The position numbers were made by a program, and so were the translations under genes. This document shows, piece by piece, positions 13,206 through 62,184 of a stretch of 64,000 bases of DNA (positions within the stretch are counted from its first letter, which is position 1; each line of letters opens with the position of its first letter). The stretch is from the NCBI GenBank assembly GCA_963663895.2, contig CAXXRD010000005.1, positions 160,408 to 224,407 of the forward strand, written 5' to 3'. The notes beneath the pieces are model-generated. The model did not search any database. It was given only the letters and a program-made list of their open reading frames with translations, and was not told the DNA's origin. Source of the stretch: Dehalococcoidia bacterium (GTDB lineage: Bacteria > Chloroflexota > Dehalococcoidia > Bin125).

Positions 13206-13393
13206 AGCTCCCTCCCGCCGTCAGGCTACCAGACCCGGTCGTGCACTAGAACTTACATTGGAAATTGGACAGGCTGGAGGGAGGCTTGCGTCCGCTCCAG
13301 TCGACTGGCACCGTTTCCAGCGAAGCAGCGCCGGATAGTGGCGTCAGCAGTACAGGCACAGTCGGACTAATTCCACTGAGCGAGGAGAACAGC

Positions 13394-45804: not shown

Positions 45805-47409
45805 CTAGCACTTCCGAAGGACGATGACCTCGTTCTCGGTGATCGCGTTCTTTACATGCGCAAAGTTCTGTGTTGTCACAGTAATGGGAATCGACTTCTC
45901 CCAAGAAAAGCCAACCTGTTCCGCTATCCGAACGATGTGGGAGCAGGTCGTAATTTGGAACTGTCGCCCGTCACCAAGAACGGTCTTACTGTCACCCAGA
46001 ACCAGGCGGGCTTCCGCCCCAACTCTCATGGCTGCAGAAACATTTTCTAGAGAACGACGCATTCCTGTAAAGTACCGGTATAATAACGCCGCAGTGTTCC
46101 GTTTCCTGAACCCAACCTCAAATTTCTCATTAGTCTCCATAATTTCACGAATATCTCCTCCCACCTCCGAAGGTAGCCTCGCCAAGCCTCCTTCAAGCAT
46201 CTCCTGCTCAATGCTCCTACGCCACCTTTCTGGAATCTCTCTACTTCCAATAATCTCCTTTTCCAACCTAGATCTGTCTTTGTGCGACATCAATCCAAGT
46301 ACGGTAAATGACAAGCGTTCCGTGTCCACATAGGGAAGAGCGGTCGCGTAGGGTGGACTGCTGACGACAGCATCTACCGGATGCTGGGCCAAGACAGGAT
46401 GCAGCCCTGGCGCTAGGGTCCTTGTATCCTCCTCCTGGACATCAACGTTGGGCTCTTTCCACGGGTAATGTCTCGTGAGGTCCTGCCCCGCTCTGATTTT
46501 TTTCATCTCACTTATCGCCTTGTTCACTGTCATAGTGAACAGAGGAGCGTCCCGGATAGGTTCCGGCCTTCGTCGCATCCGCAGATCCCGTGGGTCTTGC
46601 TGAGAGCACGACCGTAGCTGGTCGGACAAGCAGACCTTCAAAAAGTCCTGAATGCCGGGCTCTGCGATGCTGTCTATCGCCTGCAGCGTAATCGCAAGCT
46701 TGTGGCGGACGGACCCGGGAAACCAGCCTCGCAGTTCTGCTTCCGCCCCCGGCACACCACACAGCGCAGCGAGCCGGCTCGCTTCGTAGTCGGAACGCCC
46801 TGGTGGCTCCTTTTCTCCAAGGCCGCCCCATGCAATGCCCTCTGCCTTCGCCAAGCGGATCAGGTCGTCCTCAAATCTCTCGATAGCCACAGCAATTGAG
46901 TGAGCGGGGGTTCGAAGCATTCGCACCTTCGTCCTGGCAATGAGAACGGCAAGCGGGTTGACATCGAAACCAAGGGCGTCGACTCCAAGCAGCCAGGCCT
47001 CGACTAGCGAAGTCCCACTACCAGCGAACGGGTCGACCACGAGATCGCCCGGCGACACCTTCGCATGATTGAGAAGGGCCCGGGCAAGCTGCGGGTAGAA
47101 CTTTCCCTTAAACCGGTGGAGACCATGTGTGAGGTAGTTCGACTCTTTCCGGCCACTGTGACGACCTTGCAGTGCCAGTGTGGCCTGCTCAAGGAGAGAG
47201 ACGTCAGTGGTGACTTCAACGCCGTGTCCGGAAACCCTCGACGAAAAGGCAATGCGACGCAGCACTTCGGGTGAGATTCTCAGTGGCGTAGCAACCGTAC
47301 TCCCGGAAAGAGGCGTGCCGTTAGCGAGAGCAACAAGTTCGTGCTGGGCAAGCGTCTCCTCGTAGGGAAACGGCTGGTAGCCAGGCTTCGCGATCTTGTA
47401 CTCAAACAC
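45805..47409 (-). CDS. DNA methyltransferase (N4-C/N6-A SPPY type), M2 of the island
   Basis: Motif I DPFAGSGTSLVEA, then ~230 aa later motif IV VVSSPPYATALPY. Paralogous architecture to 47413-48801. Confidence 0.8.
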   Translation of the reverse strand: MFEYKIAKPGYQPFPYEETLAQHELVALANGTPLSGSTVATPLRISPEVLRRIAFSSRVSGHGVEVTTDVSLLEQATLALQGRHSGRKESNYLTHGLHRFKGKFYPQLARALLNHAKVSPGDLVVDPFAGSGTSLVEAWLLGVDALGFDVNPLAVLIARTKVRMLRTPAHSIAVAIERFEDDLIRLAKAEGIAWGGLGEKEPPGRSDYEASRLAALCGVPGAEAELRGWFPGSVRHKLAITLQAIDSIAEPGIQDFLKVCLSDQLRSCSQQDPRDLRMRRRPEPIRDAPLFTMTVNKAISEMKKIRAGQDLTRHYPWKEPNVDVQEEDTRTLAPGLHPVLAQHPVDAVVSSPPYATALPYVDTERLSFTVLGLMSHKDRSRLEKEIIGSREIPERWRRSIEQEMLEGGLARLPSEVGGDIREIMETNEKFEVGFRKRNTAALLYRYFTGMRRSLENVSAAMRVGAEARLVLGDSKTVLGDGRQFQITTCSHIVRIAEQVGFSWEKSIPITVTTQNFAHVKNAITENEVIVLRKC

Positions 47410-47412
47410 CAG

Positions 47413-48801
47413 CTATTCCTTTACCAACAGCAAGATGTGCTCCTTGCGGGCCCGGCGTGCGGCGTGGATCATTGAACGTTTCCTTGGGTGAATTACCCGG
47501 CCGACGCATGCGATGGTGCGGAGACCAAGCCGCCGGGAGACTCCAGAGAGCACTACAGCGTTGTTCACGAGCCTGCCACCAAACACGGAGTCCCCAACTA
47601 CGAAGGCAATCGGCCGTCTAGGCTGCAGGCAGGTCATGACTGAGGCGAGACACTCCCTGAGGTCGTCCTGGTAGATGCTGATGGCGTTCGCCTGACCTTG
47701 GTGGTTTAGGTGAGAGCCAATCTCCGCCTCGCGAACCTGCTTTGGGTCGAATCCGAGCCAATAGAGGCGGTGGCGGTGGTACAAGTGGTAGTCGAAAGCG
47801 TTGGCATAGGGTGGGGAGGTGATGACTGCGTCCACGAGCCCGATTTCACTGGCGTCAAGTTGACGAGCATCCCCGACAAGGGCTGTGGCCGCCGAGGATG
47901 AAGCGCCCCTTAGCCACCCGCGGTGCATCCGCACGGTATGCATCAGCTTTTCCCGAAAGCGGCGGAGGACATCGCCAACTTCGACGGTCTTCGCCCTCGC
48001 CGTGTAGCGCGTCTCGGAGTCCTGATTGGAAGCTTGGACGAGGATGGCTGAGAAGCATGCCCGCGCCACTGTAGCTGCGGACGGATGAGCCAGCTCGTCA
48101 ACCCTCGCTAGGATCATGCCCAGCTCATGCATCGCCTGGGGCGTGAACCAACGTTCTCGATTCGGGATCTGTGGAGGGGTAACTGGTGCGATGTCCGGTG
48201 TGACTGTTGCCATGAGGATTGGCTGGCCGGTGATGCGGGAGATATCCGCCTCAACAGCCTTGTCGAGCCCATCCAGGGCACTAAAGCCGGGACTATCCAG
48301 AACAAGGGTCTTGGCTAGCGATGCAAGAACCGCGACAGGGTTTGAATCGATCCCGATGCTGCTTCGGCCGAGAGCCCTTGCTTCGACCAAGGTAGTGCCC
48401 GATCCGCAGAAGGGGTCAAGGACCGTATCTCCTGGACTCGTGAGGACGTTGATCAGCCGGCGCGGGATTTGGGGGGGAAACTTGGCCGGATAGGGGTGGA
48501 GATTGTGGGTCCATTCGTCGGTCCGCTCGTCCTCGAACGCCCAGTCGGAATCATCGAGGATGCGCTTCCACTCGCGCTCAGAGTCATCCCTGGGTTCGTC
48601 AAGGGGAACTTCATCGTGATGCTCTTCAGCAGACTGCTGCGCGAGCCACGCCTCCAGAGCGGCGGGCTCATACCGAACATTCGAGCCTACCCTGACGAAA
48701 GGAATGTCCCCTCGAGTTCGGAGTCGCCAGAGCGTCGTCCGAGACACCCCCAGAATATCTTCGACCTCAGCCTCTGTGAGGAGATGATCTGGGTGAAACA
48801 T
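47413..48801 (-). CDS. DNA methyltransferase (SPPY type) with an N-terminal excisionase/MerR-type HTH, M1 of the island
   Basis: HTH LTEAEVEDILGVSRTTLWRLRTRGDIPFVRVG. Motif I DPFCGSGTTLVEA. Motif IV VITSPPYANAFDY. Confidence 0.8.
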   Translation of the reverse strand: MFHPDHLLTEAEVEDILGVSRTTLWRLRTRGDIPFVRVGSNVRYEPAALEAWLAQQSAEEHHDEVPLDEPRDDSEREWKRILDDSDWAFEDERTDEWTHNLHPYPAKFPPQIPRRLINVLTSPGDTVLDPFCGSGTTLVEARALGRSSIGIDSNPVAVLASLAKTLVLDSPGFSALDGLDKAVEADISRITGQPILMATVTPDIAPVTPPQIPNRERWFTPQAMHELGMILARVDELAHPSAATVARACFSAILVQASNQDSETRYTARAKTVEVGDVLRRFREKLMHTVRMHRGWLRGASSSAATALVGDARQLDASEIGLVDAVITSPPYANAFDYHLYHRHRLYWLGFDPKQVREAEIGSHLNHQGQANAISIYQDDLRECLASVMTCLQPRRPIAFVVGDSVFGGRLVNNAVVLSGVSRRLGLRTIACVGRVIHPRKRSMIHAARRARKEHILLLVKE

Positions 48802-48849
48802 GGGGAAACGATAGTCGCAGTGTGAGGAACCGTCAAGACGAGTCCGTGT

Positions 48850-50142
48850 TCAGACCCACCCCATCCTGCGCGCCCGTGGCTTACCACCGGATGGCAGTGT
48901 CTGGTCGCACCGCGTAATCCACTTCCGGTAGCCAGGGGAACCTTCCGGGTGGACCTCCATCTCGTAGTTCGTCCCCTGCTCCAAGCCTTCGTCGGCATGG
49001 CGAATGAGGAGGAGAGAGTACGGAGGAATGTACTGACGCAGCTCCTGACCAACAGTCATCCGTACGTCGGCGTTGTGGTATTTCATGATCTCAGGCCGAA
49101 TCGTGGTCTTCTCAGCAACCTTGCCTGTGCTGTCGAAGGCAACGAATCGTACAGTCGGGTGAGGATCCATCTTAGGGTAGGGTTTGTTGCCGGCGACTTT
49201 TGGAGTCGTTTGTCCAGACCAAGGCCACCCAAAGAATCCGGGGTTTTGGTCAATGGCCCTGGCGCTGAGAAAAACCTCAGAGTTGGGTCTTGGTACAACC
49301 TCGATCAGCAACACTGAGGCGATGGCACTGAATCCGCTCGCGGCACTCTCATGTGTCCTCAAAAACCCTTTGTTTGTGTGTGCGGGTATCGCAGACGGTG
49401 GCGCAATCCCAGAGGTCCTGAATGGAAGCTGGGCCTCCCGCTCCTCGGTGCCTCCGTGCTCGCCACGCTCAACCCGTGACCGCGCTTGAATCGCCCGTTC
49501 TGGCTCAACGAGCCCTGCGCTGACCAGCTCGTCTATCAGTTCCGTATCCAGTGCAGCCGCGCTCGGCGAAGCGGAAGGCAGCATCGCAGACCACGCGACG
49601 TCGAATTGGGACCACTGCTCAGACTCCGCGGGAAGGGAAAACTCAAAGGCAACCCCCGCTTCGTAGTTAAGCTCCAGTCCACCGAGAGTCAGGTTGTGGG
49701 AGCCGACAAGTGCTTGCGCTTCGGTAGCACCGTCGAACAAGTACAGTTTCGGATGGAAAGTCACGCTCGGATTCGGTTCGTAAAGGACACTCACCGCATC
49801 GAAGCGATCAAGCAGCAGGCGGAGTGCTTCCTCGCTGGTCCCACGATGGTCGATTCCAATAATGGCTTCCGCGCGACCACCCCGGGCACGGAACTCGTCA
49901 ACGGCCTGGATGATTCGGACGACACCAGCCTTGCGAGCAAAGGCAACTGCGACCCGAGCTCGTGTGAACCTCTCGTCGTGGAGGTAACCAGCTACGAACT
50001 CTCGTGCCCGAACCTTGCCGGCCGGCGCCTCATGAGGGGCAAGAAGCTTGAAGTTCACGGCCGTCTGGCATCCAGTGGGGCTGCGATTCTCACGTGCGGC
50101 GCATTTTGACACACTCAGACGGTGGTAGTCCGGTCCCTGCAT
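48850..50142 (-). CDS. PLD/HKD-family nuclease with a probable B3-like DNA-binding C-terminal domain (BfiI/NgoFVII-like restriction endonuclease)
   Basis: Single HKD motif FHPKLYLFDG...LVGSHNLTLGGL in the N-terminal half, followed by a ~170-aa beta-rich C-terminal domain. Sits in an operon with two MTases. Confidence 0.7.
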   Translation of the reverse strand: MQGPDYHRLSVSKCAARENRSPTGCQTAVNFKLLAPHEAPAGKVRAREFVAGYLHDERFTRARVAVAFARKAGVVRIIQAVDEFRARGGRAEAIIGIDHRGTSEEALRLLLDRFDAVSVLYEPNPSVTFHPKLYLFDGATEAQALVGSHNLTLGGLELNYEAGVAFEFSLPAESEQWSQFDVAWSAMLPSASPSAAALDTELIDELVSAGLVEPERAIQARSRVERGEHGGTEEREAQLPFRTSGIAPPSAIPAHTNKGFLRTHESAASGFSAIASVLLIEVVPRPNSEVFLSARAIDQNPGFFGWPWSGQTTPKVAGNKPYPKMDPHPTVRFVAFDSTGKVAEKTTIRPEIMKYHNADVRMTVGQELRQYIPPYSLLLIRHADEGLEQGTNYEMEVHPEGSPGYRKWITRCDQTLPSGGKPRARRMGWV

Positions 50143-50372
50143 GGGTTGCAGCCCCTATGTGGGGCTCGTGTCAGGTCCCCTTCCTACGGAGACCCGAAGT
50201 ACGCTCAGAACGAGAGCTTTACGTAGAATCGGGCGCATCTCTTTTCGCACGAGCGCGTCGTCATGCCGATGTCTCTGCTGTGCTAGGGGGATGACACAGC
50301 CTGTTTCGGGCGGACCGGCTGAACACCAGGATCTAGGTGCCTGGCTACAGAGCCATGGCCAACTCGAACGTG

Positions 50373-50383
50373 CGTAGTACAGT
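50373..50383 (+). repeat. CGTAGTACAGT motif, copy 1
   Basis: Exact 11-mer. With flanks, CGAACGTGCGTAGTACAGT (50365-50383) matches copy 3 at 18/19. Confidence 0.6.
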
Positions 50384-50399
50384 CCCGTCGGGTGTACCA
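50381..50399 (+). repeat. Degenerate direct repeat of the tRNA-Arg 3-prime end (candidate attR)
   Basis: AGTCCCGTCGGGTGTACCA versus tRNA 45752-45770 AGTCCTGCCGGGGGTACCA: 16 of 19 identical, same orientation. Confidence 0.5.
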
Positions 50400-50461
50400 A
50401 TGTGGACTGTGGGAGTAATTGGCTCTGGTGGCCGAAGCGGATTGTGGTCGCCTGGACGACG

Positions 50462-51031
50462 CTAGATCTGCCCGTAGCGGGAGCAGCTTGTGAGGTGGTC
50501 GTTCACGAGGCCGGCGGACTGCATGAAGGCGTAGCAGATCGTCGGGCCGACGAAGGAGAAGCCGTAGCGGCGCAGCGTCTTGCTCATGGTGCGTGACTCG
50601 TCTGTCTGCGCTGGCAGGTCGGCGAGGCTGAGGAAGGCGTTGCGGCGGGACTCGCCCTTGACGAAACTCCAGAGGAAAGCGTCGAGGGAGCCCTGCTCGG
50701 CCTGCACGGCGAGCGTCGCGCGGGCGTTGGCGATGGCGGCGGCGATCTTGGCGCGGTTGCGGATGATGCGGGCGTCGCCGCGGAGCCGTTCGCAGTCGGC
50801 ATCGTCGTAAGCAACGACGGTCGCGATGTCGAAGCCGTCGAAGGCGGCGCGGTAGCCCTCGCGCCTGTGGAGAACGGTGCGCCAGGAGAGCCCCGCCTGC
50901 GCCCCTTCGAGGACGAGGAGCTCGAAGAGAGCGCGGTCGTCGCGGATGGGGACGCCCCACTCTTCATCGTGGTAGCGCTGCATGAGGGGGTCGTCGCCGG
51001 CCCACGCGCAGCGGGTGAAGAGATCGGTCAC
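50462..51031 (-). CDS. tag: DNA-3-methyladenine glycosylase I
   Basis: RCAWAGDDPLMQRYHDEEWGVP...LVLEGAQAGLSW. Confidence 0.9.
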   Translation of the reverse strand: MTDLFTRCAWAGDDPLMQRYHDEEWGVPIRDDRALFELLVLEGAQAGLSWRTVLHRREGYRAAFDGFDIATVVAYDDADCERLRGDARIIRNRAKIAAAIANARATLAVQAEQGSLDAFLWSFVKGESRRNAFLSLADLPAQTDESRTMSKTLRRYGFSFVGPTICYAFMQSAGLVNDHLTSCSRYGQI

Positions 51032-51190
51032 GGCGGGAGAGGGTAGCAGGGCGTACGAGGGCGACGCTTACGATCCGCACACACCCGGCAGGGCCAGGAG
51101 GCCAACCTGTCAGAAGACGCTACGCCGACTAGCCAGCAGCCAACGACGGTGGTAGGACAGGAGGCCATGGCAGCCAGCGGGAGAGGGCCC

Positions 51191-52549
51191 ATGCCACGGC
51201 GCATTGCCATTGTTGGTGGCGGCATTTCAGGGCTGGGCGCCGCCTGGGCGCTGTATCACCACCCGGACCGTTTTGATTTTCGGCTGTTCGAGGCGCGGGA
51301 ACAGGTTGGCGGCAATGCGATTACCGCTGATATGCCGCAGGATGACGGCAGCTCGATTCCCTTCGACATCTCTGTCACCGCTTGTATCCCGTCGGTCTAT
51401 CACCACGTTCTGCTGCTGATGGAAAAGTTCGGCATCGAGCTGATCGATACCCGGTTCAGCTACAGCGTGAAGTACGGCGGGCAGGTCTACGCCCACGATT
51501 TCGATTCCGAGATCAGGGAGCAGCTGCAAGCGGAGATCGCGAGGTTCCAGCGAGTCTTGAGATGGTTGCATTGGTTTGGTTGGCTGAGCCGCTCCCAATC
51601 GAAGTTGCTGAACGCCCTCAATCCGTTCAATTACCTCAGCATGGGGACGATCCTGAATCTGGGAGGATTTTCTGGAGACTTCCGCTACAAGATTCTGAAG
51701 CCTATGTTCGTCAATTTCCTGATGGCGACGAACGTATTCGATATGCCTGCGGCGCTCTTCGCGAGGTATCTCGAATTCTTCGATATCGAAACCGCGACGC
51801 CCATGCGGACCTGGGACCAGGGAACGCGACGCATCTACGAAAACTTAGCGGCCAACTTTCGGGACAAGATCTACCTCAACCGGCCCGTCCGAAAGGTGTA
51901 CCGGCGGGCGTCCCGCGTCGTAGTCGAGGACGAGGACGGCGTACGGGAGACGTTCGACCAAGTGGTGTTCGCCTGCAATGCGAACCAGACGCTGATGATC
52001 CTCGACAACCCCACGCTTCTTGAGCGCTATATCCTCTCGTCGATCCGCTATGAGAGTGAACTTCACAACCACGCGGTCGTCCACTCCGACGCCTCAGTCC
52101 TGCCGGACAACGAGGTGAAGCCCCTGACAACGCGGAGCACGCATGTCGAGCAGTACGGCGCGAGACCGGACAACTATGAGATCACATACATCATGCACAA
52201 CCAGCAACCATGGGCGAATCGGTCCGATAAGCCTTGTCTGGTGACCTACAACCCGATCAGCTCCATTGATGAACGAAAGATCGTCAAGAGGTGGTGGTTT
52301 CAGCACATCGTCCATGACGTGCGCCACGTGGTATTGCTCGTCAACTTGTTCCGCTTCATTCAGGGCAAGAGGCGCACGTGGCACTGTGGCGCTCACACGC
52401 TGATCAACAGCCAGGAAACCTGCCTCGTTACCGGGCTCGCCACTGCCAGACAGATCGGCGCCGACTACCCCTTCGACGATCCTGCGGCGAAGCGGTCGTT
52501 CAACTATTACGGGAGCATCATGTACGGCTCGCGATTCCGGAAGGCGTAG
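51191..52549 (+). CDS. NAD/FAD-binding oxidoreductase (COG2907, amine-oxidase/CrtI-like fold)
   Basis: Dinucleotide fold RIAIVGGGISGLGAAWAL...FEAREQVGGN. C-terminal WHCGAHT...ETCLVTG. ATG 51191 is preferred (the ORF is open from 51149). Confidence 0.75.
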   Translation: MPRRIAIVGGGISGLGAAWALYHHPDRFDFRLFEAREQVGGNAITADMPQDDGSSIPFDISVTACIPSVYHHVLLLMEKFGIELIDTRFSYSVKYGGQVYAHDFDSEIREQLQAEIARFQRVLRWLHWFGWLSRSQSKLLNALNPFNYLSMGTILNLGGFSGDFRYKILKPMFVNFLMATNVFDMPAALFARYLEFFDIETATPMRTWDQGTRRIYENLAANFRDKIYLNRPVRKVYRRASRVVVEDEDGVRETFDQVVFACNANQTLMILDNPTLLERYILSSIRYESELHNHAVVHSDASVLPDNEVKPLTTRSTHVEQYGARPDNYEITYIMHNQQPWANRSDKPCLVTYNPISSIDERKIVKRWWFQHIVHDVRHVVLLVNLFRFIQGKRRTWHCGAHTLINSQETCLVTGLATARQIGADYPFDDPAAKRSFNYYGSIMYGSRFRKA

Positions 52550-52627: not shown

Positions 52628-53683
52628 CTATGTCGTCGATGTGGAGTCCCCGTAATCGCTCAGATCGGGATAGAACTGGGCGCAATAAGCTCGAAAGGTC
52701 CGCATCTCCCCATCGGAGCGGCAGAGGCGCGGATGGGAGAGGTACTGTTTGCGGCCCCAGATCACCACGTCCTGCAGCACGTCATGCTTCTGCTGCAGCG
52801 ACATGAACTTGTTCATGAGGGGCGCGCGCAGCCTCCGCGGCAGAAATCCCAGACCGACAATCCGCCGCCTCGGGTTGCGTATCTCCCGCACCTGCGAGAC
52901 CAGCGACAGGTCGATGAGCGTGCCGTCGACCGGCGTCGCCAATACCCACAGACGCAGATCCATGTCGATCGAACGCTCGTGGATCTCCACGAACGAGTAG
53001 CCCAGCCCATAGATGCGGGCTTTGGCGGAGATGTCGAAGTTGAGGGTCATGATTCCGGCGATCCGCCGGGATGACCGGAAGTCGAAGCCGGTCTTGAGCA
53101 AGGGACCGTCCACCGCTACCGGATCGACGCCGCCCACATTGTCGTATCCGTGGACGTAGCGAAGGTGAGCCAGATCCACGGAGTTCTCCGTGGTCTCCTG
53201 GGGATGGCCGGGGAAGCGCAGGGTTTGGATCTTGAAGTCACTCCAGCCGGCCTGGTCCGGGTCCGCAGGCAGGTGCCATTGCGGCGCTCGGCCCTCGATC
53301 CCCCACCAGGCGAAGATCAGGCCGTGGATCACTCGTGTCTCGAAGACTCGCAACCTCGCGGACCTGGGTGGGGCGGCGAAGGGAGTGGCGACGCATTGAC
53401 CGGTAGTATCGAACTCAAAGCCGTGGAAGGGGCAGACGAGCCGGCCATCGCAAATGCGCCCCCCCGCGGCGGGTCCCAGATCGGAGCCCAGGTGCGGGCA
53501 GACGGCCTCGGCGACGCAGACGCGCCCGTTCTCTTCACTCCAGACGACAACGTTCTCGTCCATCCAGGTCTTTTGGATGAGCTTCGCCTTCAGGATGTCC
53601 CGGCGGCTTGCGACGAAATACCATCCCTCGGGAAACAGGGAAGGGAATGGGGCGATCGCGGGTTCCCCACGCTGGGTTGGCAT
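52628..53683 (-). CDS. Rieske [2Fe-2S] non-heme-iron oxygenase (KshA/Neverland/SdmA-like class)
   Basis: Rieske CPHLGSDL...CPFHGFEF. Mononuclear iron motif ENSVDLAHLRYVH. GAGGAG RBS before ATG 53683. Confidence 0.85.
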   Translation of the reverse strand: MPTQRGEPAIAPFPSLFPEGWYFVASRRDILKAKLIQKTWMDENVVVWSEENGRVCVAEAVCPHLGSDLGPAAGGRICDGRLVCPFHGFEFDTTGQCVATPFAAPPRSARLRVFETRVIHGLIFAWWGIEGRAPQWHLPADPDQAGWSDFKIQTLRFPGHPQETTENSVDLAHLRYVHGYDNVGGVDPVAVDGPLLKTGFDFRSSRRIAGIMTLNFDISAKARIYGLGYSFVEIHERSIDMDLRLWVLATPVDGTLIDLSLVSQVREIRNPRRRIVGLGFLPRRLRAPLMNKFMSLQQKHDVLQDVVIWGRKQYLSHPRLCRSDGEMRTFRAYCAQFYPDLSDYGDSTSTT

Positions 53684-53858: not shown

Positions 53859-53907
53859 GTCCATTATGGGGAAAGTCTAAGCCGCTTAGGCTTTCCCCAT
53901 AATGGAC
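53859..53907. promoter_or_regulatory. Perfect 49-nt palindrome/hairpin covering the first ATG of the GPP34-P450 gene
   Basis: GTCCATTATGGGGAAAG (53859-53875) pairs perfectly with CTTTCCCCATAATGGAC (53891-53907). The inner CTAAG/CTTAG stem has a 3-nt CCG loop. This gives 22 Watson-Crick pairs plus one T-G. Confidence 0.85.
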
Positions 53908-55947
53908 GGGGCAAAACTCATGGCTATCGCGACGAAAGCTGGGGTCACCCAGTCGCTCAGTTTGCCCGACGAGCTCGTCCTGATGCTCCTCAACGAAGAG
54001 AGCGGCTACTTTCGCCAAATACCCGGCTGGAATTTGAACTGCGCCGTCGTCGGCGCCGTACTCGCGGAACTGTCGCTGGACTCTCGCATTGACACGGATA
54101 TGGAGTCCCTGATCCTTCTGGACCAGACGGAGACGGGCGACCCGGCCCTGGACCCCATCCTGAAGGAGATTGCAAGCGAACCAGTGCAACGGAACGCCCA
54201 GTATTGGGTTGAGCGGCTCGCTCCCCATGCGGAGTCGATCATTGATTTGACCATGGATCGCTTGGTTGACCTGAAGATCCTGCAACGCCACGAAGGCGAT
54301 TTTTGGTCGCTGGCCAGTACTGCTTGGCAGACGGATCTACTCAGCAACTCCCATGAAGGCACCGCGGCTGAGTTCGTCAGAACGCGCATCAACAGAGTGA
54401 TCTTCAGCAACGAGATTCCGAGCCCGAGAGATATCATCCTTGTTTGCCTCATCGATACGTGCGATCTCTTTCGCTTCATGTTCCAACTCGAGGACGAGTC
54501 GGAGGAACGGATCCAGCTCATCTGCAAGATGGATTTGATCGGCCGGTCCATCGCCGAGGCGGTCTCCGTCAACATCGCCAGTCCGGCGCTTCGGCGCCCC
54601 GCCTTGACTAAGTCAATTCCGACTGTCCCGCTGCGGCGGCTCCTGCTCAATCCCCATGCTCGCGGCGGCAATATTCCCGCACTCTTTGCGGATCTCGCCG
54701 AGAAGCACGGCCCGGTGTTCGAGATCCGCCCGCCGTTTAAGAAACCCATGATCTTTCTGGCCGGGCCCGAGACAAATCACTGGGCACATCGGCACGGGCG
54801 GATGTACCTGAGAGCCAGGGACTATCTCCATGACTTCGAGAAGATCTATGGCGCGTCTGGACTACTGCCGGCGCTGGACGGCGCCGATCATTTTCGCTTG
54901 CGCAAGTCCCTGCAGCAGGGTTACTCGCGCGCGAGATTGGAAGGGCAGGTGGATCAGCTCTACCGTCTTGCCCGGACGCACATGGCGGATTGGACGGTTG
55001 GAGACATTGTCCCCATGGTCACCCTGTGCCGGCGTTTGATGAACGCGCAAATCTCGCCGCTCTTAACCAGCGTGGATTCGCAGGATCTCTTCGACGATCT
55101 AGTCAAATTCAAGGACCGGGCACTCAAAACGACGCTCTTGGGGGTCATGCCCAAGTTCATGCTGCATACCCCGAGCATGAAACGCCGGGCGAAGCAGATC
55201 GACGTACTGATGGAGCGGGTCCAGAGTAGCCATACGCCCGCCCAGCGGACTGGCCGTCCTCGTGATCTTGCGGATGAGTTTCTCAGCCTGCACGCGAGCG
55301 ATCCACAGTTCCTACCGGAGTCGAATCTGCGCTTCAAATTTACGGCGCCGGTGATCGCCAGCATGTACAGCGGCGATACGCTGAGCTTCGTGGTCCACGC
55401 CATGGTGTCGCAGCCTGCGTTCTACGAGAGAATCCGGAGTGAAGCCGATGCCTTGTTTGACGGCGGCGATCCGGACGGCAAGGATTTCACCCCATCCGCG
55501 ATCGATGTCACTCGCCGTTTCATCATGGAGTGCCTGCGCCTGTATCCGATCATCCCGATGTCGATTCGAAACGTGATGAATACGTGCGTGGTTGAGGACT
55601 ACGAACTGCCGGAGGGGGCGCAGGTTTACGTAGCCCAAACCGCCACGCATTACATGAGCGACGCTTTCCCGGAGCCCCTCTCTTTCGATATCGATCGCTA
55701 CCTGCCTCCGCGCGGTGAACATATTGGTCCCAACTACGCCCCGTTCGGACTGGGCACGCACACATGTCTCGGCGGCCGGTGGGTGGAACTGCAAGTGGCG
55801 ATCAACCTGCTGATGCTCGCGCATTACTTCACGTTCGAGCTGTCGCCCCCGAACTCCAAGCTCCGGGTCAACATGTTTCCGTCGATGTCTATCAAGAAGA
55901 AGGTGAAGTGCGTCATCGCTGAGCAGAGACGCGAGTTGAACGTCTAA
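53902..55947 (+). CDS. GPP34 (GOLPH3-like) domain fused to cytochrome P450
   Basis: - N-terminal ~200 aa: GPP34 pattern (LSLPDELVLMLLNEESGYF, CAVVGAVLAELSLDSRI, TGDPALDPIL).
- C-terminal ~450 aa: P450 (ExxR ECLRLYP, FDIDRYLPPR, heme loop FGLGTHTCLGGRWVELQ).
- Start is ATG 53902 or 53920. Confidence 0.8.
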   Translation: MDGAKLMAIATKAGVTQSLSLPDELVLMLLNEESGYFRQIPGWNLNCAVVGAVLAELSLDSRIDTDMESLILLDQTETGDPALDPILKEIASEPVQRNAQYWVERLAPHAESIIDLTMDRLVDLKILQRHEGDFWSLASTAWQTDLLSNSHEGTAAEFVRTRINRVIFSNEIPSPRDIILVCLIDTCDLFRFMFQLEDESEERIQLICKMDLIGRSIAEAVSVNIASPALRRPALTKSIPTVPLRRLLLNPHARGGNIPALFADLAEKHGPVFEIRPPFKKPMIFLAGPETNHWAHRHGRMYLRARDYLHDFEKIYGASGLLPALDGADHFRLRKSLQQGYSRARLEGQVDQLYRLARTHMADWTVGDIVPMVTLCRRLMNAQISPLLTSVDSQDLFDDLVKFKDRALKTTLLGVMPKFMLHTPSMKRRAKQIDVLMERVQSSHTPAQRTGRPRDLADEFLSLHASDPQFLPESNLRFKFTAPVIASMYSGDTLSFVVHAMVSQPAFYERIRSEADALFDGGDPDGKDFTPSAIDVTRRFIMECLRLYPIIPMSIRNVMNTCVVEDYELPEGAQVYVAQTATHYMSDAFPEPLSFDIDRYLPPRGEHIGPNYAPFGLGTHTCLGGRWVELQVAINLLMLAHYFTFELSPPNSKLRVNMFPSMSIKKKVKCVIAEQRRELNV

Positions 55948-57032
55948 CGCACCAATGGATCACAACCCAGAGATTGGGAAGGAGATGGCCTGAGGGGTTT
56001 GCGTGCCAGGAAACAGTACAATGGCGTGAAGATTCCGGCCCTGCCGCCGGCGACATAGGCATTTGCGGTCCGATCCATCAACCTGACAACGTCCGCAGAA
56101 CCCTTGGGGAACGCCCCAAGGACCTCAGCCAGCCTGGATGCCCCGATGAGCGCTTTACGGCCCAGCGGAGTTCTCCGCAAGCGCGTTGCCCGTGTTCTGT
56201 GTGTGGTTTCCATGGGTTGATACCACGGCGTGGTCAGACCGTTTCTCCTCGGCGAGACGGCACGGTCCAATCCCTCAATGACCTCGAATCCCGCCGTTAC
56301 GAGCGCCCGATTCACTCCATCCATCGTCGCGATATCCTTGAGCGCGATGCCGTGCATCAGGTCCTGCTTGATGGCCCGATGCCGATTATCGTCGGGATGA
56401 AACTTGTCCGTCATGCACATTTCCTGACCCCAGAAGAGGGCTCCGGGCTTCAGCACCCGGTAGATCTCGGCGAACGCGCTTACCTTGTCAGGCGCATGGC
56501 ACGTCGATTCGATCGCATAACCCCGGTCGAACGTGTCGTCCGCAATGGCGCCCATGTCCATGAAGCTGCACTCAAGGTAGTCGACCATGTGGTCAAGTCC
56601 CGCCTCAGCGTTCAAGGATTTCGCCTTGTCAAGCTGGAGTTTATTGTTGTTGACCCCGACGACCCTAACACCGGCCTCACGGACGACCCGGCGCATCGGG
56701 CCGCCGATCCCGCAACCGACATCGACCACCGTCATGCCTGGCGTAACCTCCAGCTTGGCGATCATCAGTCGCTGATGCCGGATCTTGGACTCCTCCAAGC
56801 TCTCCCCTGGCGATAGTGGCGCGAAGTGCAGGGATTCGCCCCAACCAAAAACCATGAACTCGCCGCAAAGGTCGTAGTATTCCTTGACGGTTTCGGTGTG
56901 GTCGTAGCCCAGTGCGCCAGCCTCCTCTGTGGACATTCTGTCGGTCCATCCATCAAAGCGTTGCACGCGACGGGCGACACTCGACCCTTGATACGCGACC
57001 TTCAAGCCTTTTCCTAGCTTGCGGAGTTGCAT
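55944..57032 (-). CDS. Sterol 24-C-methyltransferase (ERG6/SMT) family SAM-dependent methyltransferase
   Basis: All SMT hallmark blocks are present: YYDLCGEFMVFGWGESLHFAP, VVDVGCGIGGP, VGVNNN, YAIESTCHAPD and YRVLKPG...MCMTDKF. ATG 57032 is preceded by AAAGGGGA (an in-frame TTG lies at 57047). Confidence 0.8.
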   Translation of the reverse strand: MQLRKLGKGLKVAYQGSSVARRVQRFDGWTDRMSTEEAGALGYDHTETVKEYYDLCGEFMVFGWGESLHFAPLSPGESLEESKIRHQRLMIAKLEVTPGMTVVDVGCGIGGPMRRVVREAGVRVVGVNNNKLQLDKAKSLNAEAGLDHMVDYLECSFMDMGAIADDTFDRGYAIESTCHAPDKVSAFAEIYRVLKPGALFWGQEMCMTDKFHPDDNRHRAIKQDLMHGIALKDIATMDGVNRALVTAGFEVIEGLDRAVSPRRNGLTTPWYQPMETTHRTRATRLRRTPLGRKALIGASRLAEVLGAFPKGSADVVRLMDRTANAYVAGGRAGIFTPLYCFLARKPLRPSPSQSLGCDPLVR

Positions 57033-57165
57033 GAGATCCCCTTTCAAAACAGCTAAGGCGAGCGGATTGTTCGCCGGAGACCCGACTGAGCGGCATCCGT
57101 GCCGTGGCCGAGGCCGGCTAGACCATTGAGGTCGTCGGCCGGTAGCGGTGTTCCCCTACGATCGC

Positions 57166-59676
57166 CTACGACGAGGCCTGTTCCTGCTCGTGGCGTTGAT
57201 GGACTTGCTCGATCACCACGTCAAGCTCCTCCGCCATACGCTCCGCCATCGAGCGGAGCCGCGCGTTCTGGTACGCGCCCCAGACCGTCATCGCGGGCGG
57301 GACGACCAGGATGGCGACGATCAGCGAATAGGCGATCGTGATCGCCGCCGTGATGCCGAACTGCTGGAACGCCAGCAGCGGCGAGGCCACCAGTACTCCT
57401 AACCCGAGCGCCGTCGTGAGCCCGGAGCCCAACAGCGCCGAGCCCGTGGTCGAAAGCGTCCGGATCGCCGCCTTCTCCGGGTTGCGCAGGCGCGCGAACT
57501 CCTCCCGGTAGCGATGAATCACATGGATCGTGTAGTCCACCCCGATCCCGATCGAGAGCGCCGTAATGATCGAGGTGACGAGGGTGTAGGGAATACCCAG
57601 CAGCGCCATCGTGCCCAGCACCCAGATGAGGACGAATACGATCGGGCCCACCGCGATGATGGCCAGCACGGGTTGGCGCAGCGTCAGCCAGAAGAAGATG
57701 GCGAGGATGCCGAGGGCCAGCGCAATGGTCGCGCTGATCGACTCTGTCTGTCGGCTCGTGATCTCGTCCGTGACCGTAACCGCGGTGATACTCGACGAAG
57801 TCGCCGTGATCGCATGGTCGTCGCCCAACCAGAGCGCGTCGATCTCCTCCTGGATCCGCTCCGTTTCCTCGGGATCGTCCGTATAGGCCGGGAACTGGAG
57901 CAGCATTGCGTCAATGCCCTCTGGGTCGTTGATCAAAACATGCGCGACGGCGGGATCCCTCGCCTCCAGCTTGTCGAGGAGCTCCTGCATCAGCGCTGAA
58001 TCGAGCTCTACTCCCACCGAGGCTTCCCGGAAGAGCGCGGCGAGCTCCGGGTCGTATTTGTCGCCGGGCTCCCCGCTGTCGTTGGTCCAGTCACGTACGA
58101 GCAACTCGTACGATGCCAGAATCGGTCCCGCTGCCGCCCGGGGGCGGCGCCGTTCGTCCTCAAAGGCGGTCGTGAGATCCTGCAGGTTCAGAAGCGTGCG
58201 GGTCTCGGTGGCCTCGGCCTTCACGAGGACGCTGGCCATCTCCGTTGAGCCGCCGACGGCTGCGTCGAGGGTCTCCATGTCTTCCACCACGCTCCCGTCA
58301 CTGGGCAGGATGTCGCGGATGCTGAATTCCGATTTGAGCCCCGTGGCCGCGAACCCGAGCCCGATCGTCGCCGCGACCACGACGACGAAGTAAGGTGCTG
58401 GCCTGCGTGCGGCCCCCGCTCCCAGCAACTCCGCCCCCCGTTTGATTCCGGGCAGGGCGTTCGCGATCGGGCGGGGCGGTTTCAGCGTGCCCCGTGACTC
58501 GCGCCGCCGGTCGATGATCGTCCGCGCGGCCGGGAGCAGCGTCAGCATCACGATCAGGCTCATCCCCACACCCAGCCCCGCGACGATGCCGAAGTCGCCG
58601 ATCACGCCGATAGGGGAGAACAGATTCGCCAACAGACTCACGATCGTCGTGACAGCGGCGAGCGTGAGCGGGGCGGCGACGTTTCGCAGTCCCCTCCGGA
58701 CCGCTCCCCGCACCGGCTCGCCGGCAGCGCGCTGCTCGCGGTAGTGCGAGACGGCCTGAATCGCATAGTCCACGGTGAGGCTGATCATGATGATCGGCAC
58801 TACCACTGTGAGCGAACTGGGCGGGCCGATCAGACCCAGCGCATCCGGCCCAAGCCAGCCCTCCGCCCCGATGATCCAGATCACCGCAATCAGTAGCCCC
58901 CCCAGGGTGAGCAGCAGATCGGAGAGCGATCGCATGAAGACCAAGATCAGCGCTGCGATCAGCAGCAGCGCCACCCCAATCAGCTGCTGCATCCCCTGCT
59001 CCGTGGCCTCCTTGTACTCATCTTCAACCACCACGGGCGACACGCTGCTCACGCGCAGCAGACCCTCGTCCCCGGCCGCCAGATCGCTGATCTTCCGTTC
59101 GGCGTCCTGAATTCTCTCGTCGTCCGTGTCACGCAGGCGGATGGTGGCGATGGCGACCGGCGTGCCGTCCGTGTCGGTTCCCGTCATCCCGGCGAGCGCC
59201 CCATCGATCTCCGGGGCGCTGCGGGCGGAGTCGATCTCGGCCTGCGTGACCGACTCGAAGCCGTCCACTCGGAGAAGGTCCTTGATCAGCGACGTCGGTG
59301 TGGCAATGGGATCGGCAGGCGCCAGTAGCTCCCTTACGCTTGGGTCGCTAACGATCGCATCGACCAGGGTGTCCATCTGAGAGAGTCCGGCGGGCGTGAG
59401 CGCCTCCCCGCGGAAGACGAGCGTGACAACACGGACCTCGCCGGAGTCCCCAAAGCGCGCATCGATCTCCTCAATCGCCTCGGCGACGGCGTTCCCTGGG
59501 GGAAGGAACGCCAAGGATGCGCCCTCCACCAGTGGTGCGCGCCGCATCGTGCCCGCAGCCAGCAGAACGGTAATGATGAGGAGAACAAGGATCGTGATGT
59601 ACGGGCGGGCCGTGACCAGCCGGCTCAACCTGTCGAGTACCTGATTCATGGCGCGCATTCTAACCGAGGAGGGCAC
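57166..59676 (-). CDS. MMPL/RND-superfamily lipid transporter (HpnN-like, two 6-TM bundles)
   Basis: 836 aa with duplicated TM bundles and large periplasmic loops. The typical MMPL N-terminus LDRLSRLVTARPYITILVLLIITVLL is present. Start uncertain (59676, 59658 or 59649). Confidence 0.8.
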   Translation of the reverse strand: MPSSVRMRAMNQVLDRLSRLVTARPYITILVLLIITVLLAAGTMRRAPLVEGASLAFLPPGNAVAEAIEEIDARFGDSGEVRVVTLVFRGEALTPAGLSQMDTLVDAIVSDPSVRELLAPADPIATPTSLIKDLLRVDGFESVTQAEIDSARSAPEIDGALAGMTGTDTDGTPVAIATIRLRDTDDERIQDAERKISDLAAGDEGLLRVSSVSPVVVEDEYKEATEQGMQQLIGVALLLIAALILVFMRSLSDLLLTLGGLLIAVIWIIGAEGWLGPDALGLIGPPSSLTVVVPIIMISLTVDYAIQAVSHYREQRAAGEPVRGAVRRGLRNVAAPLTLAAVTTIVSLLANLFSPIGVIGDFGIVAGLGVGMSLIVMLTLLPAARTIIDRRRESRGTLKPPRPIANALPGIKRGAELLGAGAARRPAPYFVVVVAATIGLGFAATGLKSEFSIRDILPSDGSVVEDMETLDAAVGGSTEMASVLVKAEATETRTLLNLQDLTTAFEDERRRPRAAAGPILASYELLVRDWTNDSGEPGDKYDPELAALFREASVGVELDSALMQELLDKLEARDPAVAHVLINDPEGIDAMLLQFPAYTDDPEETERIQEEIDALWLGDDHAITATSSSITAVTVTDEITSRQTESISATIALALGILAIFFWLTLRQPVLAIIAVGPIVFVLIWVLGTMALLGIPYTLVTSIITALSIGIGVDYTIHVIHRYREEFARLRNPEKAAIRTLSTTGSALLGSGLTTALGLGVLVASPLLAFQQFGITAAITIAYSLIVAILVVPPAMTVWGAYQNARLRSMAERMAEELDVVIEQVHQRHEQEQASS

Positions 59677-60921: not shown

Positions 60922-60994
60922 TTCCCTACCATCCTTGTTAGAGGAGGGGTGCCGGTCGAACGTCTCCCGGCGGGTGGAGTGAAAGGGTCGTCCA

Positions 60995-61846
60995 GTGACG
61001 AGGAAGCGTCGGCTGAGCCCGCGCCAGCACGCCCAGCGTGTCCGGCAGCGCCAGGCCGGAACACGCGGCTTCGACCGCGGCGGCGGTCGCCGCTCCATCT
61101 TTCGCTCGAAATACGCCAAGGTGTTCTATGTCGTCGGCATCGTCGGCATCGTCGGCAGCCTGGTGCCCCTGCTGCTGGTCGGCGGAGGGCAGCCGTCCGG
61201 ACCGGCGGCGAGCCGCGGCGAGGGACCCGCGCCGATTTCGCCGCTCGATGAAGATTCCGACGCCGCAAGTCTCGACGAAGCATTGGAGGATGCTGCAGTG
61301 AAGCCTCGATTCGACGCCCCGCCCGCGCTCGCGCTCGATCCTGATACCGAATACTCCGCCATCATGACGCTCGAGGGGGGTGGGGTAATCGAGTTCGAGT
61401 TGTTCGCGGATGTCGCACCGATCCACGCGAACAACTTCATCTTCTTGGCCGAGCAGGGATTCTACGACGGCCTCACCTTTCACCGGGTCCTGGCGGACTT
61501 CGTGGCGCAGGGCGGCGATCCCACCGCGACGGGGACGGGGAGCGCCGGCTACACGCTTCCCGACGAGGTGGTGGGAGGCAATGCGGCGGCGCTGAGCCTC
61601 GGCGGGACCGGGGTCATCTCGATGGCTCGTGGCCCGCGGGGCGCCTCGTCCTCGCAGTTTTTCATCACCCTGACGCCGCAGAGCAGGCTGGACGCCCAGG
61701 GCTTTACGGCCTTCGGCCGCGTCGTCGCCGGCTTCGACGCCGTGCAGGGGATCCGGCTGCGGGATCCCGAAGCGTTCCCGACTCCTCCCGCCGGTACCCG
61801 CATCGTCGGCGTCACGATCGAGCGCGACGGAGCCGGCCGGGAGTGA
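60995..61846 (+). CDS. Cyclophilin-type peptidyl-prolyl isomerase with an N-terminal membrane anchor
   Basis: TM VFYVVGIVGIVGSLVPLLLV. Cyclophilin FHRVLADFVAQGGDPTATGTGSAGYTLPDE...SQFFITL. Confidence 0.85.
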   Translation: MTRKRRLSPRQHAQRVRQRQAGTRGFDRGGGRRSIFRSKYAKVFYVVGIVGIVGSLVPLLLVGGGQPSGPAASRGEGPAPISPLDEDSDAASLDEALEDAAVKPRFDAPPALALDPDTEYSAIMTLEGGGVIEFELFADVAPIHANNFIFLAEQGFYDGLTFHRVLADFVAQGGDPTATGTGSAGYTLPDEVVGGNAAALSLGGTGVISMARGPRGASSSQFFITLTPQSRLDAQGFTAFGRVVAGFDAVQGIRLRDPEAFPTPPAGTRIVGVTIERDGAGRE

Positions 61847-61914
61847 GTCGGCGGGTTCGAGGCGGGAAAAGCCGCCGCCGGCTTGGCTGCTGAGCGGGAG
61901 GGAATTGCGGGCGG

Positions 61915-62184
61915 CTATTCCGGTAGTTGGGGAATCAGCCGCTCGACGATATACATCATCCCAAAGAACGGGATCGAAGCGGCGGCGGAGACGCCCGCCC
62001 AGAGCCATTCCGCTGCGACCAGCAGCAGGATCACCGCACCCAGCGAGAGGCCCATCCCCAGGATGGCGATCACCCGCAACACGACGGCCGTCACCGGAAT
62101 CGGGGGCTGTTGGATCGTCACAACGGTGCGAGCGTACCACTCGGCCTCACCGTAATGGCGGGTAGGGAGCGGGTGCCGCGTCAC
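61915..62184 (-). CDS. Small two-TM membrane protein (hypothetical)
   Basis: 89-aa ORF with two clear hydrophobic helices and GC-rich third positions. No recognisable family. Confidence 0.4.
   Translation of the reverse strand: MTRHPLPTRHYGEAEWYARTVVTIQQPPIPVTAVVLRVIAILGMGLSLGAVILLLVAAEWLWAGVSAAASIPFFGMMYIVERLIPQLPE

Follow-up and report, generated by a model that had tools for sequence, protein, structure and literature searches.

The 64,000-nucleotide stretch of Dehalococcoidia DNA analysed here (contig CAXXRD010000005.1, positions 160,408 to 224,407 of the forward strand; in the following called the window) contains a gene that joins an N-terminal GPP34 domain, the domain of eukaryotic GOLPH3 and Vps74, to a cytochrome P450. 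This GPP34–P450 fusion very probably belongs to a conserved module of lipid-tailoring and transport genes, which we found around fusion loci from about ten phyla. In our favoured explanation, to which we give a probability of roughly 0.5, the protein is an intracellular sterol-modifying enzyme, and its GPP34 domain serves as an adaptor or localiser that acts independently of phosphatidylinositol 4-phosphate (PI4P). Taken separately, a sterol is the likely substrate of the fusion and its module, and the odds that GPP34 is an adaptor or localiser are about even. The architecture of the fusion has already been published. Its link to a sterol-type module appears to be unreported in the searchable literature; a full-text search found no paper that connects the GPP34–P450 fusion with sterols.

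In the initial annotation both domains had been assigned to one open reading frame (ORF) at 53902-55947 on the plus strand, which encodes 681 amino acids when read from its first ATG. A Pfam scan matched both domains, each of them complete and far above its cut-off. In the 681-residue numbering, PF05719 covers residues 21-221 (profile positions 1-198 of 201; E value 1.4e-30; 107.3 bits vs. a cut-off of 29.1 bits) and PF00067 covers residues 254-660 (E value 4.6e-35; 121.7 vs. 22.8 bits). The quoted P450 motifs were present as well, the ExxR motif in the form ECLR (Table 1). While the ORF could thus be confirmed, its start had to be moved. Alignments of the homologs, which are about 675 amino acids long, begin at Met7 of the 681-residue reading, the closest ortholog (locus L001) keeps the second ATG only, and the first ATG (53902) is located inside the 3' arm of a hairpin in the leader. 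For these reasons the true start is probably 53920. The leader hairpin has a dG of -44.5 kcal/mol (z -7.1), and L001 carries a degenerate copy whose apical stem shows compensatory changes. At the other fusion loci no copy of the palindrome was found, such that it is not a family-wide element. It could act as an operator or as a regulatory hairpin in the 5' untranslated leader.

The fusion is a real single gene. Both domains occur together in more than 120 protein clusters (clustering at 90% identity) that are 67-93% identical to the window protein, and the fusion is found as a single gene in at least 179 species-level genomes, many of which are closed long-read chromosomes. The segment that connects the two domains is conserved among the homologs. 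The GC content and the GC content at third codon positions (GC3) are alike on either side of the junction (0.579/0.754 vs. 0.591/0.752).

Ferreira et al. 2025 (Microbiome 13:4, PMC11706023) divided GPP34 proteins into a short form, GPP34_S, and a long form, GPP34_L. In their data 656 of the 663 long forms consist of GPP34 and a P450, all from sponge symbionts of many phyla. GPP34_L forms a single clade, is expressed in the sponge and is found in 50-95% of the symbiont genomes of most phyla while being essentially absent from free-living relatives. GPP34 was also described in fusion with a Rieske domain and with an ABC ATPase. The authors propose that the protein is a secreted effector, which binds host PI4P and blocks phagosome maturation; sterols are not mentioned in their paper, and the GPP34_L flanks, pocket residues and export signals were left unanalysed. 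The premise of the initial annotation that bacterial GPP34 proteins normally stand alone does not hold for sponge symbionts, where about 47.5% of the GPP34 proteins are fused to a P450 (PMC11706023). The architecture is therefore common and published.

The gene neighbourhood was compared at 80 fusion loci from about ten phyla (Chloroflexota, Latescibacterota, Binatia, Opitutales, Thermodesulfobacteriota, Nitrospirota, Gemmatimonadota, Acidimicrobiia and others) by tblastn with the window proteins within 10 kb; statistics on gene adjacency refer to 78 loci. The initial annotation had linked the fusion to neighbouring sterol methyltransferase (SMT), Rieske and MMPL genes, and this link was borne out. 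A Rieske/KshA_C gene was found at 67 of the 80 loci (identity mostly 52-75%, 93% in L001), an SMT gene at 62 (mostly 64-80%, 88% in L001) and the MMPL gene at 45 (66-76%, 94% in L001). A flavin adenine dinucleotide (FAD)-dependent oxidoreductase was present at 50 loci and is, with 74-95% identity across phyla, the most conserved gene of the module. A transporter of the resistance-nodulation-division (RND) superfamily was found at 68 of 78 loci: the MMPL protein in Chloroflexota and Acidimicrobiia, and a pump made of outer-membrane factor (OMF), membrane-fusion protein (MFP) and AcrB in Gram-negative-type phyla without that MMPL. Assumption-free clustering of all ORFs of the loci gave AcrB, MFP and OMF in 19, 16 and 12 loci, respectively, and a second MMPL type in Binatia and Thermodesulfobacteriota. 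At 47 of 78 loci the SMT gene lay directly downstream of the fusion; at 18 of these both genes were on one strand, 4-77 bp apart. In 17 loci the genes followed the order AcrB, GPP34–P450, SMT on one strand (P450–SMT gap 4-77 bp), which looks like an operon.

The same module, amid housekeeping genes, was also found on Pfam-annotated contigs of another collection and of Petrosia, Sarcotragus and Aplysina metagenomes. The 97 kb A. aerophoba contig Ga0209021_1000146 of Brown et al. was not found in the metagenome scan. The identity of the fusions to the window protein remained flat at 62-70% irrespective of the phylum, and the gene order of the module varies between phyla, which indicates that the module spread horizontally under strong constraint. 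Within the window the compositional case for a recent transfer is weak (GC3 of 0.71-0.81 for the module vs. 0.77-0.83 for housekeeping genes). The nearest genome is the Chloroflexota metagenome-assembled genome (MAG) COS3_bin_3, with a fusion of 93% identity and a syntenic neighbourhood throughout. All related loci bear names of sponge-type MAGs or metagenomes. One locus with the fusion and the module (L043, JAAXHH010000129.1) belongs to the Latescibacterota isolate 'Plut_88884', a name that suggests the coral Porites lutea. Given this locus, the term sponge-exclusive may be slightly too narrow; coral symbionts are mentioned by Ferreira et al. too.

For the product of the SMT gene PF08241 gave 61.6 bits and PF08498 gave 57.8 bits (cut-off 21.7), and its sequence contains the motifs GWGESLHF, DVGCGIGGP and IESTCHAP. 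As regions I-III of SMTs we take YEYGWGxSFHF, LDVGCGVGGP and YAIEATCHAP (after Nes 2003). By its domains and motifs the product classifies as a predicted sterol C-24 methyltransferase; a solved SMT structure useful for comparison was not found in the PDB. The best solved relatives of the Rieske protein, which carries the CxH/CxxH and DxxHxxxxH motifs, are the KshA 3-ketosteroid 9α-hydroxylases (7e-24); an identity as SdmA was rejected (34 bits vs. a cut-off of 600). The FAD oxidoreductase matches LkcE (2e-30) and the fatty-acid isomerase 2b9w (1e-9) in the PDB, while NCBIfam matches cover its dinucleotide-binding (FAD) motif only and place it in no curated family otherwise. The MMPL protein stays below all NCBIfam cut-offs (HAE3 204 of 352 bits, HpnN 118 of 752 bits, BstA 45 of 1400 bits), by which an identity as BstA was rejected; its PDB matches are MmpL3/4/5, Patched and NPC1.

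In the favoured explanation the fusion would be located at or near the cytoplasmic membrane. It would serve as the P450 oxygenase in a module, shared by horizontal transfer, through which a lipid, most probably a sterol, is modified and moved. Sterols that are made by the symbiont or, more likely, are derived from the sponge host would be oxidised or desaturated by the P450 and the KshA-like Rieske oxygenase. The adjacent SMT would alkylate the sterol side chain, the LkcE-like flavoenzyme would act on a double bond, and the RND-superfamily transporter, be it MMPL or OMF–MFP–AcrB, would carry substrate or product across the envelope. GPP34 would be a non-catalytic adaptor that places the P450 beside a membrane-embedded substrate or a partner protein, in the position that the N-terminal membrane anchor has in eukaryotic P450s.

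A sterol substrate is suggested by the SMT signature, the activity of symbiont SMT homologs on desmosterol, the KshA-type Rieske protein and the sterol-rich host. Brown et al. 2023 (PMC10070321), whose study covered 24 SMTs, found that 8 of 10 tested SMT homologs from sponge symbionts methylated desmosterol. De novo sterol clusters with ERG24, CYP51 and LSS ('CSGs') were reported by Kelly et al. 2022 (PMC9531527) in 115 of 537 MAGs; since GPP34_L is much more common than these, exogenous host sterols are plausible substrates. GPP34 and this P450 are mentioned in neither of the two papers. An adaptor role is in turn suggested by the placement of GPP34 at the anchor position, by its retention across all P450 subfamilies and by its occasional fusion to other proteins; its occurrence on a Rieske domain and an ABC ATPase would fit a portable adaptor. 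Altogether the neighbouring genes fit a lipid or sterol enzyme of the bacterial cell better than a secreted effector.

Alignments and structure prediction both indicate that the GPP34 domain has the GOLPH3/Vps74 fold without the arginines of the PI4P pocket. The AlphaFold2 model of the domain had a predicted local distance difference test score (pLDDT) of 84 and a predicted template-modelling score (pTM) of 0.83, and in a Foldseek search of this model against the PDB GOLPH3 and Vps74 were the only matches with E values below 1e-3. TM scores of 0.69 to GOLPH3 9qpq_B (TMt 0.66) and of 0.66 to 3kn1 (TMt 0.64) were obtained. With GOLPH3/Vps74 (PDB 3kn1, 9qpq, 2zih) the domain thus shares the Pfam family, the predicted fold, the PTGDxLLD core motif and a β-hairpin; the family hidden Markov model scores GOLPH3 at 58.9 bits. 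It differs by an identity of only about 17% and by being fused to an enzyme in a bacterium, which has no Golgi.

We take the PI4P pocket of GOLPH3 to be formed by W81, R90, R171 and R174 (after Wood 2009 and Dippold 2009). The pocket was compared by alignment only, using 64 sequences, namely 20 members of the clade and 44 diverse representatives. In the window protein R90, R171 and R174 are replaced by Val, Glu and Ile, respectively. At the position of R90 all 20 clade members have V, A or I and all 44 representatives a non-basic residue. The position of R171 is E or D in 20 of 20 clade members and acidic in 29 of the 44 representatives (Asp/Glu in 49 of 64 sequences), being basic in none of the latter. 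For R174 the clade has I or V throughout (20/20), while Arg was found in 21 of the 44 distant representatives. The alignment at W81 is ambiguous, and an equivalent Trp may be kept. The net charge of the domain is about -16 (clade median -16.5, range -24 to -10) compared to +1 for residues 53-260 of GOLPH3. A phosphoinositide-style tethering, as the analogy to GOLPH3 in the initial annotation implied, is not supported in view of the lost arginines and of this charge. The acidic surface would favour a protein partner over simple binding to anionic membranes, such that GPP34, if it localises the enzyme, probably does so via a protein partner or another non-PI4P mode.

Hydropathy and inspection of the N-terminus, MAIATKAGVTQSLSLPDELV, revealed neither a hydrophobic core nor an RR pair that would mark a signal peptide or a twin-arginine signal, and the first GPP34 helix begins at residue 15. 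No transmembrane segment was found in the fusion protein; the highest KD19 hydropathy was 1.7, inside the GPP34 domain. Export by Sec or Tat thus appears unlikely, while type III, IV or VI secretion would still be possible. GPP34 is the only extra domain beside the P450 and carries no redox-cofactor motifs. Only two Cys residues are conserved in the clade, and neither of them is conserved across the superfamily.

The P450 looks catalytically intact by its heme-thiolate motifs. The heme Cys as well as Gly610 and Gly612 are each conserved in 46 of 47 superfamily members, and the heme Cys loop, the ExxR and the PERF-like motifs are kept throughout the superfamily. The closest solved structures, at 16-22% identity, are CYP184A1 in complex with oleic acid, M. 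capsulatus CYP51 and the heme domain of BM3. By these comparisons the P450 belongs to no characterised CYP family. An identity as CYP51 was rejected (E value about 1e-19, covering the C-terminal half only, about 20% identity; no NCBIfam equivalog near its cut-off). The I-helix lacks the acid–Thr pair of the (A/G)Gx(D/E)T motif, as seen in the family alignments as well as in HMMER alignments to CYP184A1 and CYP51. Its Tyr (Tyr483) is invariant (34/34), and Leu stands in place of the Thr in 28 of 34 sequences. Besides the window protein, the I-helix comparisons covered the proteins P0286, P0296, P0297, P0303 and P0369. In every member of at least 41% identity the motif reads A(S/G)x-Y-L-G-(D/S)-A; it lacks the Thr and is one residue shorter than in CYP51 and CYP184A1, whereas the sulfotransferase-associated paralogs of 33-35% identity keep the canonical G-x-(E/D/H)-T. 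The missing pair hints at an atypical oxygen activation or a non-hydroxylating chemistry in this large clade. An I-helix Thr is not known from the C-22 desaturases CYP710/CYP61 either.

Table 1. Coordinates of the fusion, its parts and its neighbours in the window.
Feature	Position	Strand	Description
GPP34–cytochrome P450 fusion	53920..55947	+	675 aa from the conserved, probable start; both Pfam domains
GPP34 domain	53962..54564	+	aa 15-215 of the 675-aa protein; PF05719
Cytochrome P450 domain	54661..55881	+	aa 248-654; Cys loop FGLGTHTCLGG, ExxR, FDIDRY; PF00067
Non-canonical I-helix	55357..55389	+	aa 480-490; ASMY-SGDTLSF; clade consensus ASVYLGDALSF
Hairpin/palindrome in the 5' leader	53859..53907	+	24-nt arms, 96% complementary; 13 nt upstream of the likely start
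LkcE-like FAD-dependent oxidoreductase of amine-oxidase fold	51149..52549	+	Pfam Amino_oxidase
Rieske [2Fe-2S]/KshA_C oxygenase	52628..53683	-	divergent from the fusion; Pfam Rieske and KshA_C
Sterol methyltransferase homolog	55944..57047	-	convergent with the fusion, 4-nt overlap; Methyltransf_11 and Sterol_MT_C
MMPL/HAE3-type RND lipid transporter	57166..59676	-	Pfam MMPL, Sterol-sensing, Patched

Several points weigh against an intracellular sterol-modifying enzyme with a GPP34 localiser. The substrate is deduced from the neighbouring genes alone. With CYP51 the P450 shares an identity of only about 20%, and the structure that it matches best is that of a fatty-acid-binding protein. The Rieske protein is no ortholog of SdmA, and the MMPL protein is HAE3/HpnN-like and no ortholog of BstA, its matches to the Sterol-sensing domain being generic to this class of transporters. 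Genes for oxidosqualene cyclase (OSC), CYP51, ERG24 and SdmAB were not found among the scanned genes of the window, which include part of the ORFs of its first 38 kb, and none of them is a conserved neighbour across the 80 loci. Likewise no ferredoxin or reductase is conserved near the fusion in the 80 loci and the Pfam-annotated contexts. Other fused subfamilies are accompanied by sulfotransferases or by GNAT and creatininase genes, such that the superfamily does not seem uniformly tied to SMT. Concerning GPP34, its acidity counts against a simple electrostatic binding to anionic bacterial membranes. The full-length AlphaFold2 model (pLDDT 67.7, pTM 0.52) is too uncertain for interdomain contacts.

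Within the same module context GPP34 could instead be a lipid- or sterol-binding cargo domain, which hands the substrate from the membrane or a transporter to the P450. We consider this unlikely. Even P450 subfamilies of no more than about 26% identity keep the fusion (44 of the 47 long representatives), which speaks for a general service of GPP34 to the P450. Also the conserved linker, the pocket, whose basic residues have given way to neutral or acidic ones and which might accommodate a ligand without phosphate, and the co-occurrence of LprG-like and TP_0789/LolA-like lipid carriers near the fusion in some loci are in line with a cargo domain. However, sterol binding is known for no GPP34 protein, and the poor full-length model makes a prediction of interdomain contacts unusable. 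The GOLPH3 fold is a compact helical bundle that is not known to have a lipid tunnel.

It is quite unlikely that the module acts on a non-sterol lipid, such as a hopanoid or other triterpenoid, a fatty acid or a polyketide-like compound, or that it breaks down host steroids in the manner of KshA and CYP125. The best structural matches of the P450, the oleic-acid-binding CYP184A1 followed by the fatty-acid hydroxylase domains of BM3, point to a non-sterol lipid, as do the resemblance of the MMPL protein to the hopanoid transporter HpnN and that of the FAD enzyme to LkcE and a fatty-acid isomerase. Moreover, the SMT also matches CMAS of the cyclopropane-fatty-acid-synthase family, and for 2 of 10 symbiont SMT homologs Brown et al. 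(PMC10070321) saw no activity on the sterols that they tested. The presence of Sterol_MT_C and of the sterol-binding region-I motif GWGxSxHF argues otherwise. A steroid breakdown would be in agreement with KshA being a catabolic enzyme, but KstD, CYP125, Mce4 and β-oxidation genes are not conserved in the 80 loci, and a methyltransferase and an efflux pump would make little sense in such a pathway.

For the long form, the published model of GPP34_L as a secreted effector that binds PI4P of the host phagosome and spares the symbiont from digestion (Ferreira et al. 2025) appears very unlikely. It would agree with the restriction of the family to symbionts from more than 16 phyla and its expression in the sponge (PMC11706023). 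The GOLPH3/Vps74 fold is confirmed by our model, and a Trp equivalent to W81 may be kept. Eukaryotic GOLPH3/Vps74 members bind PI4P, yet in the clade the pocket arginines are replaced (R90 by V/A/I, R171 by E/D, R174 by I/V) and the domain has a net charge of about -16 rather than the +1 of GOLPH3. Furthermore the N-terminus resembles neither a Sec nor a Tat signal, and the apparent operons contain enzymes and efflux pumps and not secretion systems. All heme-thiolate motifs of the P450 are kept, such that an effector would require heme and a bacterial electron supply. This case concerns GPP34_L and not GPP34_S. For the long form the inference from the neighbouring genes has considerably more support than the function proposed in that paper. 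Finally, the chance that two genes were merged artificially, by a frameshift, an overlooked stop codon or a wrong join in the assembly, is practically negligible: orthologs were checked and encode one ORF of about 675 amino acids in over 120 clusters and in 179 species genomes, closed long-read chromosomes included, the junction is conserved with the same composition on both sides, and nothing was found in favour of a merging error.

A search with the P450 domain against representatives at 50% identity found proteins of fused length down to about 26% identity, and both domains are present in 44 of the 47 long representatives. In all 3 loci sampled, paralogs of 41-44% identity are accompanied by Rieske/KshA_C orthologs, which are 52-66% identical to that of the window; an AcrB pump may or may not be present as well. 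At 48-50% identity the neighbours are GNAT, a creatininase-like gene and PhyH (2 of 2 sampled). In these two loci (L086 6166-10052, L090 6241-10103) a divergent GNAT acetyltransferase, a creatininase-like gene, Peptidase_M19 and PhyH were found, none of them of sterol type. Paralogs of 33-35% identity have one to three tandem sulfotransferases with PhyH nearby (2 of 2 sampled): three PAPS-type sulfotransferases in tandem in one locus (L084 4241-9983), and a single one plus a sulfatase in the other (L088 8001-11130). As pure speculation, the pairing with sulfotransferases recalls the polysulfated sterols of sponges. Because the neighbouring genes differ between the paralog subfamilies, GPP34–P450 is, as judged from gene context, a platform for several small-molecule tailoring contexts, the pairing with the Rieske gene being the deepest association.

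A more far-reaching and tentative reading, which we hold to be somewhat improbable, sees GPP34–P450 as the hallmark oxygenase of a horizontally exchanged island for sterol modification and export, with the GOLPH3 fold repurposed from the recognition of PI4P to a PI4P-independent adaptor. By means of such islands unrelated symbionts from at least ten phyla would alkylate the side chains and oxidise the ring or side chain of sterols that are mostly derived from the host, and paralogous islands would add sulfation. GPP34 would couple soluble oxygenases to a membrane-bound substrate or to RND transporters. If true, the islands would have a share in the unusual range of sterols that sponges contain and in the sterane biomarkers that are attributed to sponges.

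Elsewhere in the window, two DNA methyltransferases, one of them with HTH_17, and a PLD-family nuclease form a restriction-modification-like block at 45805-50142. With a low GC content of 0.56-0.60 and GC3 of 0.61-0.68 it is the sole region of clearly atypical composition beside the module. Of its genes the PLD nuclease alone was compared with the loci, and it had no match in the otherwise syntenic L001. The block was probably inserted beside the module only recently. A second defence gene at 13265-15511 encodes a GmrSD-type restriction endonuclease whose C-terminus carries a RAMA domain; it accords with reports that sponge symbionts are enriched in defence systems. Three ORFs, putative genes, at 60938-62140, 62401-63957 and 50283-50960 (400, 518 and 225 amino acids) have no Pfam or NCBIfam matches and are conserved only in L001 (80-84%).

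GPP34_L is among the most widespread symbiont-specific genes of sponge microbiomes, and evasion of phagocytosis is the sole published hypothesis for it. If the link to sterols is true, experiments would shift from effector biology to lipid enzymology. The P450, the KshA-like Rieske protein, the LkcE-like flavoenzyme, the SMT and the RND pump would become candidate genes for the debated microbial share in the unusual sponge sterols, which bears on 24-isopropylcholestane and related steranes as animal biomarkers. A bacterial GOLPH3-fold domain would also be placed in a functional context for the first time. Should the link prove wrong, the locus is one more copy of a described fusion. We therefore regard it as a testable lead of moderate interest and not as the discovery of a new fusion.

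Among known systems, the endoplasmic-reticulum-anchored sterol P450s (CYP51, CYP710/CYP61) resemble the fusion in two respects: it has an N-terminal extension where they carry their membrane anchor, and it is accompanied by a sterol methyltransferase. It differs from them by the missing transmembrane helix, an identity to CYP51 of about 20% and an I-helix without the acid–Thr pair. A bacterial P450 joined covalently to a helper domain is also found in the CYP51–ferredoxin of M. capsulatus (6mcw/7snm) and in P450 BM3, whose P450 domains are among the nearest structural matches. There the partner is a C-terminal redox domain, whereas here it is an N-terminal GOLPH3 fold that cannot supply electrons.

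An RND transporter beside lipid-tailoring enzymes is known from the systems of HpnN for hopanoids, MmpL3 for mycolates and BstA/B/C for sterols (Zhai et al. 2024, PMC10942540). These systems are further resembled by the LprG-like and LolA-like carriers in some of the loci, while the MMPL protein of the window reaches none of the curated family cut-offs. An MFS transporter (L003 16858-18504) and an LprG/LppX-like lipoprotein (L016 17203-18198, LppX_LprAFG-like) accompany the module in about 17-18 Chloroflexota loci, a pairing that resembles the mycobacterial lipid-export pair lprG–rv1410c. The sterol clusters of sponge symbionts, those with ERG24, CYP51 and LSS (Kelly, PMC9531527) and those with OSC, CYP51, ERG24, SMT and sdmAB (Brown, PMC10070321), occur in the same hosts and phyla, share an SMT homolog and likewise show a pattern of horizontal transfer with purifying selection. 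They differ in that OSC, CYP51, ERG24 and sdmB are missing here and the Rieske protein is not an SdmA ortholog. The closest known system is GPP34_L, of which the window gene is a member: the two-domain architecture of about 650-700 amino acids is the same, and the identity to sponge-MAG proteins from the datasets of that study (SB06xx, COS3, RHO, APA) is 62-93%. No structural difference separates the two; what differs is the functional reading, which would be an intracellular enzyme in a sterol-type module instead of a secreted PI4P effector.

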